64,000 nucleotides of DNA from a virus (Duplodnaviria > Caudoviricetes): IMG/VR virus record IMGVR_UViG_3300016744_000001; one strand, given 5' to 3'. How positions within the stretch are numbered: position 1 is the first letter of the stretch; the number at the start of each line of letters is the position of its first letter. Of the stretch, positions 3,222 to 44,662 are shown piece by piece. Below the pieces are notes generated by a model that did no database searches, was not told the DNA's origin, and saw only the letters and a program-made list of their open reading frames with translations. Made by a program: the position numbers and the translations under genes.

Positions 3222-3703
3222 TCACGAGGTCCACAGGCCATCGTGTGACTACTGACTGCGATGATAATAAACCTGTCTTTGTTCTTATATTAGACTACTA
3301 CTCCCTTTGTAGGGGAGTAGTAGTCTTTGTGTATATTTCAATTTCAATTTGTTTGTATCTTATGTTTAAAGTTTCAAGTGACTGGTTGCTGGTTGGCTTC
3401 ATCCTTGGAAGGAATGAAGACACGATGTGAAACGAGTGTCTGAGTGACTGACCCCTGTCTTTCCCTCTTATCTCTCTTCACCCATGCGACGAGACCTTCA
3501 GGCGAGTGCATGGTCCGACAAGACTCTTTCCACACTCCGTATATATACTCTCTAGGGCCGGAGGCCCTATTAGTGTGTGTGTACGCATCACATAATAAAG
3601 ATGGTAAAGAATTAAAAAGATACTTTATATAAAGCAAAGCTACTATCTCCTACAAGGGAGATAGTAGTGAGTGTGAGAATGTGAATCAAAGAAATAAAAG
3701 TTA

Positions 3704-3719
3704 TATATCACCAAGGTGA
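3704..3719 (+). promoter_or_regulatory. phage early promoter motif TATATCAC-N6-GA
   Basis: Matches a motif repeated 10 times in intergenic DNA; resembles the phiKZ early promoter TATATTAC. Confidence 0.7.
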
Positions 3720-3776
3720 TGCGATTGTACGCACAAAACATTTCTCTATCTTAGCAACGAGAAAAAAGGAATAGAC

Positions 3777-4178
3777 ATGAACAACATCCTGCTTGGTAAA
3801 CTGATCATCAGAACCAGTATAGGATTCTTTATCTTGATGATCATCCTCAACATCATGGTGCTGCAGATGAAGGTGTTCCCTTATTTCAACAGTCTACCTG
3901 ACGGTTACCCAGTTGACCAGCAAGATTACTGGATGAGAGTCTTGCTCAAATATCTGAGATTTCATGTACTTAATAGTCTTCTCAGTCTTCTGATCATTCA
4001 TGTAGCTAAGTTGCTTGATGTTTATCAAAGTCGGGACAATGCAAAAATTGCAACAATGTATCATCTACCAGTACGAGAAACATCACTCGAGGTCTTTACT
4101 GCGATAACCATCGTGCTAGTGAATGGCACCATGAATATCTGGATGTTGGCAGATACCAGAACATTAAACTTATTTTAG
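3777..4178 (+). CDS. small multi-pass membrane protein
   Basis: About 3 hydrophobic segments; AAGGA RBS. Confidence 0.75.
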   Translation: MNNILLGKLIIRTSIGFFILMIILNIMVLQMKVFPYFNSLPDGYPVDQQDYWMRVLLKYLRFHVLNSLLSLLIIHVAKLLDVYQSRDNAKIATMYHLPVRETSLEVFTAITIVLVNGTMNIWMLADTRTLNLF

Positions 4179-4324: not shown

Positions 4325-4714
4325 ATGAACATAATCACAAAGAGCTTTTCTGTATGTATCTTGGCTATGTTTAGTCAGATTGTTTACATGCTGGATCAGG
4401 TGAAGGAGATGGTCAAGGTAGGACTTGATGTCATCGAACTGGGAATCATCTACTTTTTACGGATGTCACTGGTGATCATCATGTTGGTCGCTATACTTCT
4501 GGCTCCTGGTTCGGAAGAGATCTATCACAACAACATCTTCGCCACCTGGTGGACAATACTCCACTATGGGATATTTACCGTGGTGACGGACCTTTTTTAT
4601 CATTGCGATGAAGGTAGTCTTGCTCGGTCGGTGTTCTTTGTGTTATTTGGCGCACCACTCATGTTGATCGTCAAGTATGATGCATCAATGGTCATTCCAC
4701 TCTTACTCTGCTGA
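4325..4714 (+). CDS. small multi-pass membrane protein
   Basis: About 4 hydrophobic segments; AGGAG RBS. Confidence 0.75.
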   Translation: MNIITKSFSVCILAMFSQIVYMLDQVKEMVKVGLDVIELGIIYFLRMSLVIIMLVAILLAPGSEEIYHNNIFATWWTILHYGIFTVVTDLFYHCDEGSLARSVFFVLFGAPLMLIVKYDASMVIPLLLC

Positions 4715-8095: not shown

Positions 8096-8139
8096 TCAAT
8101 CTCTGATCAATCAACACAACAACTCCTAAGGAGTACATC

Positions 8140-8976
8140 ATGGCTAACGAATTTTTCAGGGAACTGCTTGAACACATTGCCAAACAGTCTTCTACCACTC
8201 GCTCCAGCAACTCGGTTGTCTACATGCAGGAAATGGGCATTGCTGATCCCGAGATCGACGCGCTCAGCGGCCGTGAACAGTCCGATCTGGACGACAAGAA
8301 AACCAACGAACTGCTCAATGTGTTTCTGGCCATGCAGCAAAGCCCTGTCCCTGATCCGGATGTCACAGTCATTCATTTTGACAAGGACGCCATGCGTGGT
8401 GATCCTGAAGACACTTTCTTCTTCAATGCTGAAACCATGCGCAACATCGCCGGCAAGCTGACCGCTCGTGAAATGTCCGAGCTGTTCGTGTTCATCAACT
8501 CTACGTATTCCGCCATTCGCAAGAATAATGCGCTTGTGTCACTCGTGCATGTACCGACGTTGCGGGCTTACTTGGAAGAATGGCTGCAGCCATTCCTGCG
8601 GGAAGCCAAGTATGATGGGTTGATGCTCCTTGGTCTGTACAACGTGTATGACGTTGACGGCACCGCCATCACCAACTATATGGAAGAACTCGCTGCCAAA
8701 GAGCAGACTGCTGTTGCGATACCGGAAGATATTCTTGCGCAGCTCAAGACGCCGGCCTGCACCGTCCTGCTCCCCACCCTGGCCGATGACTTTCTTCCTG
8801 ATCCTCGTGGTTTGGAACTTCGCCCACTGGCTAATGGACTGATTCGGCTGGACTCGTTTGTGCTTTTGCACAAGCGGTTTATTGTCAGCTTCAGCCACAT
8901 CAACAAGGTAATTGCATTTGCTGACCCTGCCGCGATCTATGCAAAGATGGGTTTCAGTGGTGGTGGTGAAGCGTAA
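8140..8976 (+). CDS. hypothetical early protein
   Basis: AAGGAG RBS directly after the promoter; GC-rich third codon positions. Confidence 0.8.
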   Translation: MANEFFRELLEHIAKQSSTTRSSNSVVYMQEMGIADPEIDALSGREQSDLDDKKTNELLNVFLAMQQSPVPDPDVTVIHFDKDAMRGDPEDTFFFNAETMRNIAGKLTAREMSELFVFINSTYSAIRKNNALVSLVHVPTLRAYLEEWLQPFLREAKYDGLMLLGLYNVYDVDGTAITNYMEELAAKEQTAVAIPEDILAQLKTPACTVLLPTLADDFLPDPRGLELRPLANGLIRLDSFVLLHKRFIVSFSHINKVIAFADPAAIYAKMGFSGGGEA

Positions 8977-30038: not shown

Positions 30039-30054
30039 CATATTACTTAGGTGA
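30039..30054 (+). promoter_or_regulatory. phage early promoter driving the structured non-coding region
   Basis: CATATTAC-ttaggt-GA; no RBS/ORF follows. Confidence 0.65.
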
Positions 30055-30735
30055 GAGTCATGACCAAGAGTTAAATCTCACCTATCTTTGTGCGATACGA
30101 CAGTGTTGCACTTCAATGCTACCGAGACACTGTCTTGGTGGTCAGGAGAATGTGGTACAGAGTTGCGCGAGACTTCTGGATGTCCAATATCGCAGATGGG
30201 AAGTCGCAGTCCATCGGGTAAAAAGATCCACGTTCTGGCGAGTAGTTATCATGCGCATGATAGCCTCTTGCTTACCTGTCACGGCGTTTGGTCACCAGAT
30301 GCCGTTTGCGCGGACCAAGTCTGCGCCGTATGCTGGCCGGAAGCTTCCGGCACCCGATGATGTATCGGGTTCAAACGCGGCACGCCCTATGCGGCCCGCC
30401 GCAACACACAGCGGGCGGGGAATTGGAAATGCTTCCTACCCCGCCCGGTTATAAGAACACAGGGCTTTGGCAAACCCTGGCCATCGGGTAGTAACTCGTT
30501 GGTAAGCCACTATGAATGAGGATCGACGTGTCCTCAAGCCGTGCGCCTGGGCTCATTTGAGTGGGCGCTTGCGGTACTCCAACGTCATGCAAAACCAAGC
30601 GATTGGTTTACCTCCCCATCCCGAAAGGTGTTGCGAGCGACCACTTGTTGCCGCGCTCTGTGATACAATCTCCATGCGTGGAGACGTGCTGCTACTTCAA
30701 CTCGTAGTTGCATGAGAGGGGTGGGGAGGGTTTTA
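30053..30735 (+). ncRNA. candidate large structured ncRNA (~680 nt), family unassigned
   Basis: More than 12 consecutive stems with G-U pairs; promoter upstream; closing stem 30611-30622/30718-30729 followed by a T-tract. Confidence 0.65.
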
Positions 30736-31396: not shown

Positions 31397-31473
31397 CGGA
31401 ATGTGGCGCAGTCTGGTAGCGCACTTGCTTTGGGAGCAAGACGTCGAAGGTTCAAATCCTTTCATTCCGACCA
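31397..31473 (+). tRNA. tRNA-Pro(TGG)
   Basis: Cloverleaf with anticodon arm CTTGC-TT-TGG-GA-GCAAG, TTCAAAT T-loop and encoded CCA. Confidence 0.95.
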
Positions 31474-31492
31474 AAATTATCAAGGAACGATC

Positions 31493-31675
31493 ATGTCGTA
31501 TTTGCATGAGTGTACCCTTTGTGAAGTCACCGAGGAAACTGCTGAAAAAGCGATTCTCCCCGCTGGCTGGGTAGCGTTTAAAACCGCCGAGACAGAAGAA
31601 ACTTGTCCCTGGCCGGTGGAGCTTTGCAAGAGTTGCACCGATCTGGCTGTCGCCTACCGTAAGGCGCATCCTTAG
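31493..31675 (+). CDS. small zinc-binding protein
   Basis: CTLC...CKSC; AAGGA RBS. Confidence 0.65.
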   Translation: MSYLHECTLCEVTEETAEKAILPAGWVAFKTAETEETCPWPVELCKSCTDLAVAYRKAHP

Positions 31676-31686
31676 TTGATTCATTT

Positions 31687-31771
31687 GCCCTAGTGGCCAA
31701 ATTGGTAAAGGCAGCGGTCTCAAAAGCCGTGAGCGAAAGCAGTGTAGGTTCGAGTCCTACCTGGGGCACCA
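31687..31771 (+). tRNA. tRNA-Leu(CAA)
   Basis: Anticodon CT-CAA-AA, long variable arm, GGTTCGAGTCC and CCA. Confidence 0.95.
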
Positions 31772-32129: not shown

Positions 32130-32354
32130 ATGAATACGAAACCTACTAAGGCTGCAAAAGCGTTTGTCGATACCAAAGCTCACTTGTTTGAAGAAGAGAT
32201 CTTCATGTTTGTCGCAGCTTCCAGAAAGGCTGCTGAAAAGGAACTGCGTGAGCGTTTCCCCAAACTGTGGATCGAAAAGACCGACGGGACGTATCGCTCG
32301 GAGAAAGACGGAGAATGGCTCCTCTTCATCCGTGAAGAACCTGTGATCGGTTAA
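32130..32354 (+). CDS. small hypothetical protein
   Basis: 74 aa with coding-like composition. Confidence 0.6.
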   Translation: MNTKPTKAAKAFVDTKAHLFEEEIFMFVAASRKAAEKELRERFPKLWIEKTDGTYRSEKDGEWLLFIREEPVIG

Positions 32355-32360
32355 AGATTT

Positions 32361-32730
32361 CCGGCAGGGGTACTTAAAGCCGTGTGAAATGTCATACCGC
32401 TTAAATTGGGTATTTGTAGGTTTGATGGACCTCTCCTACTTAACCCTGCCGGTCCAAATTGAGAGTCATGGACCCCTTCCAATATCGACCTCCTTGCTGT
32501 GCTGCGTCGCATTGGCTCCTATCCCCATCATGACTCTCATTCATTTCTCTTCCTGCTCGGTAGCCGAAGTTGCTCCCCCTACCAGCTGACTGAGGTCTTG
32601 CAGGAAGAGAATAAACCTCAATGTTCACCGTCAACAACAGCGTGGTGTCTGATCAATCAACACTCATGTCGAGCACTGAGGTTTTCTTGTTTTATTCTAG
32701 TGGCACCAACCGTCGGGGTTGGTGCCACTA
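32361..32730 (+). ncRNA. tandem array of four stem-closed small RNAs plus a terminal hairpin
   Basis: Units 32361-32452, 32460-32539, 32545-32611 and 32613-32684, each with 9-14 bp pairing between its own ends; hairpin at 32698-32730. Confidence 0.6.
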
Positions 32731-32771
32731 TGACGACAATTTTGAGCATGCATTTTTCTTTTGGAGGAACA

Positions 32772-33317
32772 ATGTTAATCTATACTGGAATTGGCAGTCA
32801 AAAGACTCCACCAGACATGTGCATGCTAATGACTGACATCGCTAAGCAATTAGCAAAACGTTGGTTCTTACGCAGCGGCTATGCTGATGGTGCAGACAAG
32901 GCATTTGGAAAAGGAGCTTATCAAGTTAATGCTCCCCAAGTACATTACCTTCCTTGGGCTGGGTTCAACCATGCACCAAAGGACAATCACATCTTTAAGC
33001 CTTTGGATAAATTGCCTAGCCACTTGGTGCTACAAGCAACTGAGATGGCGGCACAGCTGCACCCCAATTGGGCAGCCTGTGGACAAGGGGCAAGAAAGAT
33101 GCACACCAGAAATATGTTTCAGGTATTGGGAGATGATCTAAATACTCCCACCGACATGGTGGTGTGTTGGACTCCAAAAGGATCTGGTTCTGGTGGTACA
33201 GGGCAAGCAATGCGTTTAGCCAAAAAGTTAGATATTCCAGTCTTCGATTTGGCAATTGCTGGGACTCTGGAGGCAATGTTAATTTTCGTATCTGAAAAAG
33301 AAAACACAGAGGTGTAG
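32772..33317 (+). CDS. DprA-like SLOG-family protein
   Basis: YTGIGSQKTP, LRSGYADGAD, RN..QVLG and GGTGQAMR motifs; GGAGG RBS. Confidence 0.8.
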   Translation: MLIYTGIGSQKTPPDMCMLMTDIAKQLAKRWFLRSGYADGADKAFGKGAYQVNAPQVHYLPWAGFNHAPKDNHIFKPLDKLPSHLVLQATEMAAQLHPNWAACGQGARKMHTRNMFQVLGDDLNTPTDMVVCWTPKGSGSGGTGQAMRLAKKLDIPVFDLAIAGTLEAMLIFVSEKENTEV

Positions 33318-34966: not shown

Positions 34967-35055
34967 GCTACTCATCCCACACCAACTGGTGTGGGATGAG
35001 TATATTTTGTACAAAGTTTTTTCTTTGTATCTAATCAAGAATTTACGAGGTCATT

Positions 35056-36816
35056 ATGAAGTTATCTGTCAAGTTGACAGGCTTGTCAACAACACTGACT
35101 CTGTTTACAATTATCGTTGGGGTACTAGCGATACTTGGAATGTCAAACATTAACCGTGAAACACAAGACTTGGCGAAGAACTGGTTACCATCAGTCAAGT
35201 CAGTCAGTGAGCTGTCAGATGCGGTTAACGAGTTCAGACGAGATCAGTTGGCTAAGATCATTGTCAACATCAACAACAACAATGAGTTAGTTGTTGAGTA
35301 CAACCAGAAGACTGACAATGACTCAGCTCGTGTACAACGGCGAATGGATCGTTATGCGAAGTTGATCAGTGAACCTGAAGAACGAGTGGCGTTTGAGGAT
35401 TTCAAGATCGCTTGGCAAAAGTACATGGTTATCAATCAACGAATTGAAGTCCTGCTGTTACAAAACAAACCACAGGAAGCTGGCACACTGTTGTTTGGGG
35501 ATGCTCGGGTGATCTACAATACGGCACTATCAAATCTGCTTAAAGCGATCTCAATCAATGACCAAGGGTCAAGTCAATCAGCTGCTAAGGCGAGTGACGA
35601 GTACTCTCGTAGCCGATTGATCACATTGATCTTGACAGTAGTGTCCACGCTGATCGCGATCATGTTTTCAGTATTGTTGATCAGAGTAGTTCTCAAACAG
35701 TTGGGGGAAGACCCGGGGTATCTGTACGAAGTCTCCATGGAGATTGCGAATGGAAACCTTGATGTCAAGTTGAAGTCATTTGTGGGTGAGGGTGGTGTAT
35801 ACGGTGCACTCACGAAGATGGTCGCAACTTTGAAAGCTAAGATCAAAGAAGCTGAAGAGAAGTCAGCTCAGGCTGCACAAGAAGCGCAGTTTGCGAAAGA
35901 AGCCACTGCGGTTGCTGAAGAAGCAACTCAGAAAGCTCAACGTGCCAGAGCTGAAGGCATGATGCAAGCGGCAAAACAGCTGGAAGAAGTTGTGACTATT
36001 TTGACAACAGCGTCTGAAGAACTGTCAGCGCAAGTGGAACAATCTCGTCGAGGAGCAGATGATCAGTCTGGTCGGGTACGAGAAACAGCAACTGCAATGG
36101 AAGAGATGAACGCAACTATCTTGGAAGTAGCAGGGAATGCTCAACATGCAGCTGAAGCGTCCACACAGACCAGACAGCAGGCAATTGAGGGTACCACCAT
36201 TGTTGCTGATGTTGTCAAGAGCATTGAGTCCGTCAGAGTCCAGTCAGCTGGGATCAAGTCAGATATGGACATGCTTGGTAAACAAGCACTGGCAATTGGT
36301 CAGATTCTTAATGTGATTGCCGACATTGCCGACCAGACGAACCTGCTTGCTTTGAATGCCGCCATTGAAGCTGCCCGTGCAGGTGATGCTGGTAGAGGGT
36401 TTGCAGTGGTCGCTGATGAGGTTCGTAAACTTGCTGAAAAATCAATGACTGCTACTCAAGAAGTTGGGAAAGCAATCAATGACATTCAGGAAGGAACTAA
36501 AAAGAATATTGCTGGGGTTGAGAGCAACACTGTTGCAATTGAACAGGTAGCTTTGTTGTCAACTCAGTCTGGTGAAGCATTGACCAAAATCCTTGAGTTT
36601 GTTAACCATGTGAACGATCAAGTGCAATCAATTGCCACTGCTTCAGAAGAACAGTCAGCGGCAAGCGAAGAGATCAATCGTTCTGTGGAAGAAGTGGCAA
36701 CAATTTCCAACGAGACATCAGTTGCTATGGAACATGCCTCAGGTTCAGTTGCTAAACTGTTGCAACAAGTTCAAGTACTTCAGAAGCTCATCACTGAATT
36801 GAAATCAGCTAAATAA
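35056..36816 (+). CDS. methyl-accepting chemotaxis protein (four-helix-bundle sensor, Desulfovibrio-like)
   Basis: TM1, NWLPS-type 4HB sensor, TM2, HAMP-like segment, and [38 protein letters not shown]. Confidence 0.95.
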
Positions 36817-36875
36817 TTCATCAGTACTACACCCTGAAGAGGGTGTAGTACTGAGAATCGTAAAGATTTAAGGAA

Positions 36876-41073: not shown

Positions 41074-41127
41074 ACAATAACTCCACTGACCGGCAGGATT
41101 CCTGCCGGTCAGTGATAAGGAAGTGTC

Positions 41128-42938: not shown

Positions 42939-42991
42939 TAGTATAGTCAGTGGCAGTTATAACAACAACCTTCATGATATCTGGAGTATTC

Positions 42992-44662
42992 ATGGATCGT
43001 CAACAATTGTTGGCTCAGCTTAATGAACTGAAGTCAACCGAGCGCAAGAGCAAAGTTGAACGGTATGATCCTGATGGCAACTTTATCGGTGAACAGGATA
43101 TCACCGCACAACAGTACGAGGAAACTCGTTATGTTCCACCGGACCCGTACGACTTTGAGTTCGACACGTCGGAAGTCGATGCCCAAAAGCAGAAGTACGA
43201 AGAAGCAAAGGCAAAGAAAGCCGCTACAAAACCTGACTCTCAGCCAGACGACACCGAGACTACCGGTGATGGTAATGGCGCTGAATCACAACCGCAAGAA
43301 AGCCAGAGTGGTCAGGGTGGTCAATCTGGACAGTCCCAGAATGGTAATGGTGAAGAGCAGTCACCAATGACCAAGCAGACTTTGGAAGAACTCCAGAAGC
43401 AGCTGGATGAAGCCAAAGTTGAATGTGAAGAAGGTCTTGCCGAAGATCCGGATAGTAAAGAACTGCAGGAATCCAAACAACAGCTGGACAAACTGCAGGA
43501 AAAGCTGGACGCACACAAGCAGGCTTTGGCCGAGCAGCAAGGACAGAATGGTGATCCCAATCAGGAACAGCAGTCGGGGCAGCAGCCTAACGAATCTGGT
43601 TCTGAACAATCGGATCAGCAGAATGGTCAGTCTGAAGAAAAGAACGACCAGTCTGGGGATGCTGAATCCGAAGACAAACAGGACAAGCCTGATCAGCAAG
43701 ACGGTCAGCAGGATGACAAGTCTGAGGAAGCGTCTGACAAAGAAGACGAATCCAAGAAAGAAGCTGAAGAGCAAAAAGAAGATCAGCAGCAGACTCCTCA
43801 ACCTGAACCTGAAAAGCCGGAACCTGAACAAAAGAAAGAGGAACAGAAAGAAGAAGAACTTGTTCCTCCAGATCAGGCTTACTACAAACCGTCTTGGTAC
43901 CAGGACATGAAGAACCTGGTGATGATGGGATTTGATGTTCTCGTGTGTGGCCCGGCCGGTTGCGGTAAGTCTCGTGCTGGTCGTGAGATTGGTCGGGAAT
44001 TGAAGAAGCCTGGCAACACTCACGCGTTTCGTGCGGGGATGCGCAAGTCTGAACTGCTGTACTCCAAGGAACTCCGTGGTGGCGACAGCGTGATCGAACT
44101 GTCCCCTCTGCTGCGTGAAGTTCAGAAACCTCTCATCACAGTGATCGACGAAGCCTTGTCAGTTGACCCGGAAGTGTTGATCTGCTTCAACGGCCTGCTG
44201 GAATCTTCTCAGCGCAGTGTTGACACTCCGATTGGTGAAGTGGTGCGGGATAAAGAACATCGGTTCATCCTGACCAGCAACACTGACGGCCGTAGTGAAT
44301 CACGCATCTATCGTGCTCCTCAGATGCAGGATGCTTCCATCCTGTCTCGTGTCATGGTCATGAATGTTGACTATGATGAAAAGGTGGAATGCAACATCGC
44401 TTGTTCTTCCGGCGCCCCCGCTTGGAAGTACATTGTTCACAACACGCATGCTCTGCGAAAGGCAGTGCGCAAAGCTGACATGGTGATGGACATCTCCACT
44501 CGTTGGATTGTTCAGGCATGCAAGCTTAACAAAGCTGGGGTCGCTCGTGAAAAGGCGTTTGCTATGGCGATGCTTGACCGCTTCAACGAGAACGAGCTGA
44601 AGAAGCTGCAGGGCATGGGGACAACCATTGACTTCAGTGGTGCATCGAAGCTGCAAAAGTAG
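42992..44662 (+). CDS. MoxR/CobS-like AAA+ ATPase with long Q/E/D-rich N-terminus
   Basis: GPAGCGKS Walker A, VIDE Walker B, TSNT sensor. Confidence 0.85.
   Translation: MDRQQLLAQLNELKSTERKSKVERYDPDGNFIGEQDITAQQYEETRYVPPDPYDFEFDTSEVDAQKQKYEEAKAKKAATKPDSQPDDTETTGDGNGAESQPQESQSGQGGQSGQSQNGNGEEQSPMTKQTLEELQKQLDEAKVECEEGLAEDPDSKELQESKQQLDKLQEKLDAHKQALAEQQGQNGDPNQEQQSGQQPNESGSEQSDQQNGQSEEKNDQSGDAESEDKQDKPDQQDGQQDDKSEEASDKEDESKKEAEEQKEDQQQTPQPEPEKPEPEQKKEEQKEEELVPPDQAYYKPSWYQDMKNLVMMGFDVLVCGPAGCGKSRAGREIGRELKKPGNTHAFRAGMRKSELLYSKELRGGDSVIELSPLLREVQKPLITVIDEALSVDPEVLICFNGLLESSQRSVDTPIGEVVRDKEHRFILTSNTDGRSESRIYRAPQMQDASILSRVMVMNVDYDEKVECNIACSSGAPAWKYIVHNTHALRKAVRKADMVMDISTRWIVQACKLNKAGVAREKAFAMAMLDRFNENELKKLQGMGTTIDFSGASKLQK

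Follow-up and report, generated by a model that had tools for sequence, protein, structure and literature searches.

Small stable RNAs encoded within phage tRNA clusters, such as species 1 and species 2 of T4, have been known since the 1970s. The T4 genes rnaD (species 2, 119 nucleotides, nt) and rnaC (species 1, 139 nt) are placed in tandem directly after tRNA-Arg, with spacers of 1 and 6 nt, and the functions of the corresponding band C and D RNAs are still unknown according to the authors of work on Pseudomonas phage PAK_P3 (PMC4933390, PMC10914365). In PAK_P3, sRNA1 and sRNA2 (ncRNA1/2) are abundant RNAs that have no transcription start of their own and are processed from the 3' untranslated region (UTR) of the upstream gene in the tRNA region (PMC4933390; PMC10914365). 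This analysis deals with an array of four stem-closed units followed by a hairpin, located at positions 32361-32730 of a stretch of 64,000 nt (the window) from the Caudoviricetes record IMGVR_UViG_3300016744_000001.

Like T4 rnaC and rnaD, the array is non-coding, lies on the same strand as the tRNA genes and forms a tight tandem (spacers of 7, 5 and 1 nt) whose members differ in sequence. The traits of coding status and layout of the T4-type small stable RNAs (non-coding, same strand, tRNA-adjacent, tandem with spacers of a few nt) are found in it. On the other hand, comparison of the array with the T4 tRNA region by blastn-short gave no match at E<=1. In T4 rnaC a canonical tRNA T-arm (CCGGGUUCGAAUCCCGG) adjoins a weak end-pairing, and the minimum free energy (MFE) fold of rnaD lacks a strong closing stem, whereas the array shows long perfect closing stems, no canonical T-arm and four modules instead of two. 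Besides, a protein gene, the 74-amino-acid (aa) open reading frame (ORF) ORF74, separates the tRNAs from the array, and the C content of the loops is 24-34% here and 9% in T4 rnaC.

The biogenesis of PAK_P3 sRNA1 and sRNA2 is the same route as that proposed below for the array, although neither the phage family nor the sequences are related; an 11-mer resembling a tRNA T-loop is part of sRNA2, whereas the array has no detectable tRNA-like segment, and the expression of the PAK_P3 RNAs is proven, whereas the array is known here from sequence alone. With the GOLLD and ROOL RNAs the array shares the position beside phage tRNA genes, an elaborate conserved structure and an unexplained function, but it has no Rfam match, is far smaller and consists of separable stem-closed modules. 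The bacterial Y RNAs (YrlA) associated with Ro60/Rsr, which some phages encode, are also stem-closed small RNAs with paired ends, the pairing of the 5' and 3' ends being their functional stem; the array differs from them in having no Rfam match, no tRNA-like domain and no TROVE protein among the neighbours scanned. By this comparison of setting and probable biogenesis, the array is akin in kind to the still unexplained stable RNAs of T4, but it forms a sequence family of its own.

Architecture, covariation and strand of the array

The array is, in all likelihood, a real and selected structured non-coding cassette of the + strand, as judged from the analyses of folding, covariation and coding status given in this section. 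The end-pairings of the four units were all located where the initial annotation had placed them, and so were the short spacers between units, of 7, 5 and 1 nt, which are followed by 13 nt before the terminal hairpin. The elements are the following:

Unit 1: 32361..32452, + strand, three-way junction with a closing stem of 9 base pairs (bp) (32361-32369 paired with 32444-32452), a variable long hairpin and a 5-bp arm.
Linker 1: 32453..32459, + strand, UCCAAAU (AUCAAAU in the relatives L004 and L008, listed below).
Unit 2: 32460..32539, + strand, 11-12-bp closing stem (32460-32470 paired with 32529-32539) and a fast-evolving, pyrimidine-rich interior in which a CCUC core is kept.
Linker 2: 32540..32544, + strand, UUCAU, inside a near-invariant UUCAUU.
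Unit 3: 32545..32611, + strand, 10-12-bp closing stem (32545-32556 paired with 32600-32611) and an inner hairpin with the invariant loop CUCCCCCUA(C/U)C; the most conserved module.
Unit 4: 32613..32684, + strand, 12-14-bp closing stem (32613-32626 paired with 32671-32684) and a dispensable interior.
Terminal hairpin: 32698..32730, + strand, perfect 14-bp gene-end hairpin (arms 32698-32711 and 32717-32730) with no U-tract after it.

The comparison with shuffled sequence that had been suggested as a check on these folds came out in their favour. A stretch of 386 nt has an MFE of -143.6 kcal/mol versus -104.1 +/- 4.9 kcal/mol for its dinucleotide shuffles (z -8.0; 0/100 as good), and the MFE structure returns the four closed domains and the hairpin. 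Folded separately, the units give z values of -4.3 (unit 1), -3.05 (unit 2), -3.2 (unit 3) and -2.8 (unit 4), and the terminal hairpin gives -4.7. The three-way junctions attributed to most units are firm in unit 1 alone, since the fold of unit 3 is compatible with a rod as well as with a three-way junction and units 2 and 4 have no conserved interior. The arm of unit 1 carries a conserved 14-nt loop, UYUGAUGG(A/G)(C/U)CUYU, and the CAAAU of linker 1 is invariant together with the adjoining UGAGAGUCA. In all lineages the positions predicted to be unpaired are pyrimidine-rich and G-poor (C 24-34%, U 34-40%, G 6-9%). The regions 31474-31686 (z -1.8) and 31977-32129 fold no better than shuffles, and therefore the array does not extend upstream. 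By eye, the loop of unit 1 (UUUGAU) might form a pseudoknot with linker 1 (AUCAAA / CCAAA); the compensation of this pairing is inconsistent and it is taken as a lead only.

Relatives were found through exact-protein look-ups of homologs of both flanking genes, ORF74 upstream and a DprA-like gene downstream, in Logan, ENA and NCBI assemblies:

L002 (the same as L003), with the partial L012: DprA-like protein 87% aa identical.
L004: DprA-like protein 80% aa identical.
L008-L011 (four assemblies): ORF74 74% aa identical.
L007: ORF74 82% aa identical.
L014: distant ORF74 homolog.

Scans of IMG/VR and JGI metagenomes with two conserved patterns gave 0 matches. In IMG/VR, the ligase query retrieved 0 relatives and the DprA-like query a single locus, in an unrelated integrase context. 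The contig P0006, which carries a DprA-like homolog, stops 521 nt upstream of this gene and is uninformative about the array site.

The structural alignment comprises the window, L002, L012, L004, L008 and L009. From it RNAalifold recovers every closing stem and the terminal hairpin, and also two internal elements, the unit 1 arm of 5 bp and the hairpin inside unit 3. Covarying homologs, as anticipated in the initial annotation, are present in these relatives: the consensus has 78 pairs, 98.2% of the cells are paired, and 19 pairs have changed on both sides (30 cells). None of 500 column shuffles reaches the observed values, and when the 3' partners are slid by 1-3 columns pairing falls to 37-47% and the compensated pairs to 1-4. 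The compensatory pairs are distributed over all closing stems (three in unit 1, three in unit 2, one in unit 3 and five, the most of any helix, in unit 4), with one more in the terminal hairpin (G-C/C-G/A-U) and three in the 5-bp arm of unit 1; unit 3 as a whole has compensatory pairs at alignment columns 211/260 and 228/246.

Sequence identity to the window is unevenly distributed. The closing stems and unit 3 are kept at 80-100% (unit 3 at 80-88% in all relatives), linker 2 at 86-100%, linker 1 at 71-100% and the unit 1 arm with its UYUGAUGG loop at 75-96%. The long hairpin of unit 1 shows 22-63% identity, and in unit 2 the interior shows 45-58% versus 83-88% in the closing stem. As a whole, the array is 83% identical in nucleotides to that of L002, the same value as the DprA-like gene; third-codon-position identity amounts to 68% for the DprA-like gene and to 84% for ORF74, the array being similar or higher. 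A covariance model of unit 3 detects one copy in each alignable relative, no extra copy in the window and none in L007, L006 or L001. The order of the modules in the alignment is fixed across all alignable relatives.

The + strand is the selected one, because in this sense the consensus pairs contain 36 G-U cells versus 5 A-C cells and the tRNAs, like every neighbouring gene, have this orientation too. An RNA from the minus strand, which folds about equally (z -7.0), was rejected for the same reasons, the proportion of G-U and A-C cells being reversed there. The non-coding status claimed at first sight was borne out, since the open frames differ in frame and length across relatives and the indels are not multiples of three; a protein-coding reading was ruled out because no frame is kept across relatives.

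The array, which the initial annotation could not assign to a known family, matches none: Rfam 15 gave no match at the gathering threshold and none overlapping the array at E<=10, and with the arrays of the relatives nothing was found at E<=1. Known ribozymes, riboswitches and large ornate RNAs (hammerhead, twister, HDV-like, GOLLD, ROOL) were discarded for want of a covariance-model match. In the hammerhead core CUGAUGA the C is essential, and it is missing from the unit 1 loop UUUGAUGG in 3/4 lineages. The pairwise local alignment scores of the units are within those of shuffles; as the units share no sequence, the array is not a CRISPR or another repeat array (e.g. ToxI), and only two chance repeats of 10-11 nt were seen.

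The functional ideas attached to the array fared worse. Mimicry of tRNA had been proposed, partly from a TCCA resembling an acceptor end after unit 1. ARAGORN gave no tRNA in the array, the tRNA model (RF00005) gave no match in 32200-32900 at E<=10 or in the arrays of the relatives, and this tail reads UCCA in the window, L002 and L012 and AUCA in L004 and L008. In unit 1 the 5' strand of the closing stem runs directly into the long hairpin, whereas the 5-bp arm lies 4 nt from the 3' strand, a topology opposite to that of the stacked acceptor stem and T-arm in a tRNA. The suggested likeness to Y RNAs found no backing either: no Rfam Y-RNA model matched at E<=10, and a Pfam search of 16 neighbouring proteins gave no TROVE/Ro60. 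A 570-aa neighbour considered as Ro60 (42950-44662, +) is a MoxR/CbbQ-type AAA+ ATPase (AAA_5, CbbQ_C) and not a TROVE protein; PHROGs labels it "porphyrin biosynthesis".

The C-rich loops of units 1-3 had been described as complementary to the Shine-Dalgarno (SD) sequence, which is GGAGG/GAGG in this phage, judging from the window. Of the three, only CUCCCCCUA of unit 3 is invariant; the loop of unit 1 is CCUUUCC in all relatives, and unit 2 keeps only a CCUC(C/U) core. According to our own estimate, CCUC-type words in the loops are about as frequent as expected from their pyrimidine-rich composition. The anti-SD idea is neither excluded nor well supported.

Modular turnover at the site downstream of ORF74

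Parts of the array have been lost or exchanged among the relatives. The long hairpin of unit 1 is deleted in L004 and swapped for another hairpin in L008. The interior of unit 4 is absent in L008-L011, where this unit is a plain hairpin. In L007, ORF74 is nearly the same (81% nucleotide identity), the type of gene-end hairpin and the downstream ribosome-binding region are the same, and the 533-nt intergenic RNA cannot be aligned to the array (44% identity, no BLAST similarity), although it also folds as a chain of stem-closed domains (z -4.0). L014 presents a different arrangement, with a gene-end hairpin and a stem-closed domain of about 210 nt (z -7.4), and in a more distant ORF74 homolog there are 70 nt followed by a 178-aa gene, with no cassette. 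Since L007 and L014 carry other cassettes and the distant homolog none, the site 3' of ORF74 is, on this comparison, a slot that holds different structured-RNA cassettes. About 1.4 kb downstream of its cassette, L007 also encodes a full-length transfer-messenger RNA (3599-3962, +; Rfam 146 bits; ARAGORN tag peptide ANNSTPVYANAA).

The DprA-like gene is decayed to a remnant in L008-L011 and a different gene is found in its place in L007, while the structured RNA is kept in both cases; the gene is, to judge from these loci, not needed by the array. In L008 (about 4590-4660, and also in L009-L011) the DprA-like start is ATA and a stop follows some 21 codons on, the RNA array upstream being intact.

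Some words of the array recur elsewhere. A 16-nt exact same-sense repeat, TCTGATCAATCAACAC, is shared by the variable interior of unit 4 (32648-32663) and positions 8102-8117 (+) (E 0.005) and is not conserved in the relatives; the second copy is within the 5' leader that precedes the gene at 8140, right behind a TATATTAC word (described below). The 11-mer TGAGAGTCATG makes up the 5' side of the stem that closes unit 2 (32460-32470) and occurs again at 30052-30062 (+). GAGAGTCA recurs within the L014 hairpin, and TGAGAGTCA has 4 copies in the window versus 1.4 expected, a number reached by 6/100 shuffles. The recurrence of the TGAGAGTCA and TGAGAGTCATG words may be due to chance.

Phage, neighbouring genes and probable transcription unit

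The window encodes split multisubunit RNA polymerase beta-type subunits (phrog_3295, 3015, 2986), with just 28% identity between its RNA polymerase subunit and those of the phiKZ group. The flagged region has no match to GenBank phages by INPHARED blastn except for the tRNAs and a short piece of the DprA-like gene. On these two grounds the source of the window is considered a deep-branching uncultivated phiKZ-like jumbo phage, a distant relative of phiKZ. A tblastn of ORF74 against cultured phages also gave no match. Sequence identical to the window is carried by a 273-kb metagenome contig from ENA. A methyl-accepting chemotaxis protein (35056-36816, +) has its nearest bacterial relatives (43-54% identity) nearly all in the Desulfovibrionaceae, which suggests a sulfate-reducing, Desulfovibrio-like host.

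The array belongs to an ORF-poor "RNA island" downstream of an NAD-dependent DNA ligase gene. The order of the island is tRNA-Pro, a small inserted ORF, tRNA-Leu, a 64-aa ORF, ORF74, the array and the DprA-like gene. The main neighbours are:

tRNA-Pro (UGG): 31397..31473, + strand, found by ARAGORN and Rfam (67 bits); the same tRNA is upstream in L002, L007, L009 and L012.
tRNA-Leu (CAA): 31687..31771, + strand, found by ARAGORN and Rfam; upstream member of the conserved module.
ORF74: 32130..32354, + strand, 74-aa ORF; homologs of 74-89% aa identity adjoin every array.
DprA-like gene: 32772..33317, + strand, phrog_768 (E 5e-57).

ARAGORN detects 5 tRNAs in the whole window and 0 within 32361-32730. 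The order tRNA-Pro, tRNA-Leu, ORF74 is common to L002, L009, L012 and L007. The gap between both tRNAs is 7-8 nt in L002, L009 and L012 and 51 nt in L007; in the window it contains a 60-aa ORF (31493-31675, +) with an AAGGAA ribosome-binding site and CxxC...CxxC cysteines of zinc-ribbon-like type. This ORF is an insertion specific to the lineage of the window, because the two tRNAs are near-adjacent in the relatives.

The array begins 6 nt past the stop codon of ORF74 and ends 41 nt ahead of the DprA-like start. The differences between ORF74 homologs fall largely at third codon positions. The family has about 32 distant clusters with proteins of 62-89 aa, its consensus being MKVYV.TKA.PF..E.F..V..S.K.AEK.LR..FP.MR...Y.SDK...LLFI.EEEV. 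ORF74 was considered as a possible RNA-binding partner of the array. Its AF2 model is confident (pLDDT 82) and shows a small beta-beta-alpha-beta-beta-beta fold, for which no fold match was found in the PDB at E<=0.001; there is no Pfam match either.

A terminal hairpin at the end of the array had been noticed from the beginning. It is present, but it is a generic gene-end hairpin of the phage and not specific to the array. Hairpins of this class, perfect and of 13-16 bp, are also found in the window just 3' of stop codons at 34969-35002, 36821-36854 and 41084-41114; all of them start with YA(C/G)U and finish with A(C/G)UR, and most have no U-tract. The array's own hairpin, at 32698-32730 (UAGUGGCACC...), is another member. 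It was rejected as an intrinsic terminator, since the terminator scan made no call and the downstream sequence, UAUGACGACAAUUUUG, has no U-tract. The gene-end hairpins are probably the phage's own terminators or 3'-end stabilisers, and the one closing the array is the probable 3' boundary of a transcription unit.

Related to the start of this unit, the word TATATTAC has 5 copies in the window (8080, 10015, 24216, 36876 and 54043) versus 0.43 expected, all on the + strand and just ahead of genes, and it is a candidate promoter element of the phage. It presumably resembles the AT-rich early-promoter element of phiKZ. An AT-rich early-promoter consensus does exist in phiKZ (PMC8244752). The nearest upstream near-match, CATATTAC at 30039, has one mismatch and follows the ligase gene directly; allowing up to one mismatch, the word is not found between that copy and 32941. 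The segment from tRNA-Leu to ORF74 has no significant structure. As there is no promoter-like word inside, no structure before ORF74 and the first gene-end hairpin comes after unit 4, we infer one rightward transcription unit, which comprises the tRNAs and ORF74 and has its end at 32730.

Possible maturation and action of the array

The reading preferred here is that the array is matured into separate small stable RNAs, like T4 species 1/2 or PAK_P3 sRNA1/2, and its probability is estimated at about one half. The lineage-specific cassette consists of four independently folding modules, whose ends are locked by stems of 9-14 bp, and would form the tail of a transcription unit with tRNA-Pro, tRNA-Leu and ORF74, closed by a standard gene-end hairpin. 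The primary transcript would be cut in the short, conserved, single-stranded A/U-rich linkers, alongside the RNase P/Z cuts that free the tRNAs, with the release of three or four RNAs of about 66-92 nt. Having paired termini, these would resist exonucleases as well as RNase E in its 5'-end-dependent mode. They would then act via their invariant pyrimidine-rich loops, UYUGAUGG in unit 1 and CUCCCCCUA in unit 3, on a partner that could be a protein or a G-rich RNA.

Several points weigh against this proposal. The relatives represent about four independent lineages, so that the covariation is strong as description but weak as formal statistics. Of the linkers, linker 1 alone matches, on inspection, the published RNase E pattern "RN|WUU", and instead of being cleavage sites the invariant linkers might just as well serve a single RNA as tertiary or structural elements. 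The units have no canonical T-arm such as that which makes T4 rnaC an RNase P-type substrate. Finally, sequences complementary to the unit 3 loop are no commoner in the 64-kb window than by chance (6 occurrences at <=1 mismatch versus 5.6 expected).

It is possible, though less probable than separate RNAs, that the array is a single multi-domain RNA of about 325-370 nt, folded as one particle in which the linkers would be hinges or sites of tertiary contact. That the linkers and their flanking bases are the most conserved letters of the stretch (71-100%) and that the module order is unchanged in all alignable relatives would be expected of such a particle. The turnover described above is easier to understand for independent modules, because whole sub-domains (the hairpin of unit 1, the interior of unit 4 and, in L007, all modules) have disappeared or been exchanged with the rest left as it was. 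Besides, no conserved complementarity between modules was seen by inspection of the four lineages, which give no detection power, and neither GOLLD, ROOL nor any other large-RNA family was matched.

A cis-acting UTR is an unlikely alternative, in which the array would be either a 3' UTR, which shields the tRNA/ORF74 transcript against 3' exonucleases or insulates it from the gene that follows, or the 5' leader of the DprA-like gene. The position of the array in the short space between ORF74 and the DprA-like gene (6 and 41 nt away, respectively), always behind ORF74, fits with a UTR; its closure by a gene-end hairpin also favours a UTR, and processed 3'-UTR-derived phage RNAs have been documented (PMC10914365). 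Against the leader version, the RNA is kept where the DprA-like gene has decayed (L008-L011) or been replaced (L007). As for protection of the transcript, a lone hairpin suffices at other genes of this phage, and the loops of unit 3 and unit 1, not the stems alone, are strongly constrained. The distant ORF74 homolog without any array is a further point against this alternative.

Somewhat more doubtful still is that the RNAs are tRNA- or Y-RNA-like decoys of host nucleases or defence sensors, or anti-SD small RNAs or sponges acting through C-rich loops (a mode of action that would overlap with separate RNAs and with a single RNA): the pyrimidine-rich, G-poor unpaired positions of every lineage, the invariant CUCCCCCUA of unit 3, the CCUC core of unit 2 in every lineage and the GGAGG/GAGG SD of the phage are consistent with it, but no tRNA or Y-RNA model matches at E<=10, the CCA-like tail is not conserved, there is no Ro60 among the neighbours tested, two of the three proposed loops lack conservation as anti-SD sequences and the complement of the unit 3 loop is at chance level in the 64-kb window.

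Returning to separate stable RNAs, a more speculative and rather improbable extension is that they form a swappable toolkit, whose pyrimidine loops (CUCCCCCUA of unit 3 and CCUC of unit 2) capture SD regions or a host RNA-binding or defence protein, re-programming translation or blunting RNA-sensing defence, and whose modules are exchanged among relatives (L007, L014) as hosts change. If so, this toolkit would act during infection by a jumbo phage of the nucleus-forming type.

The family of the array is small, with four or five metagenomic lineages, and no mechanism emerges from it. To the small stable RNAs of phage tRNA regions it adds a cleanly delimited, covariation-backed example from a clade of phiKZ-like jumbo phages that appears to be deep-branching. 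It indicates that these cassettes evolve by loss and replacement of modules, keeping the clamped ends and a few invariant loops, and this pattern of turnover singles out the loops and the linkers as functional candidates.

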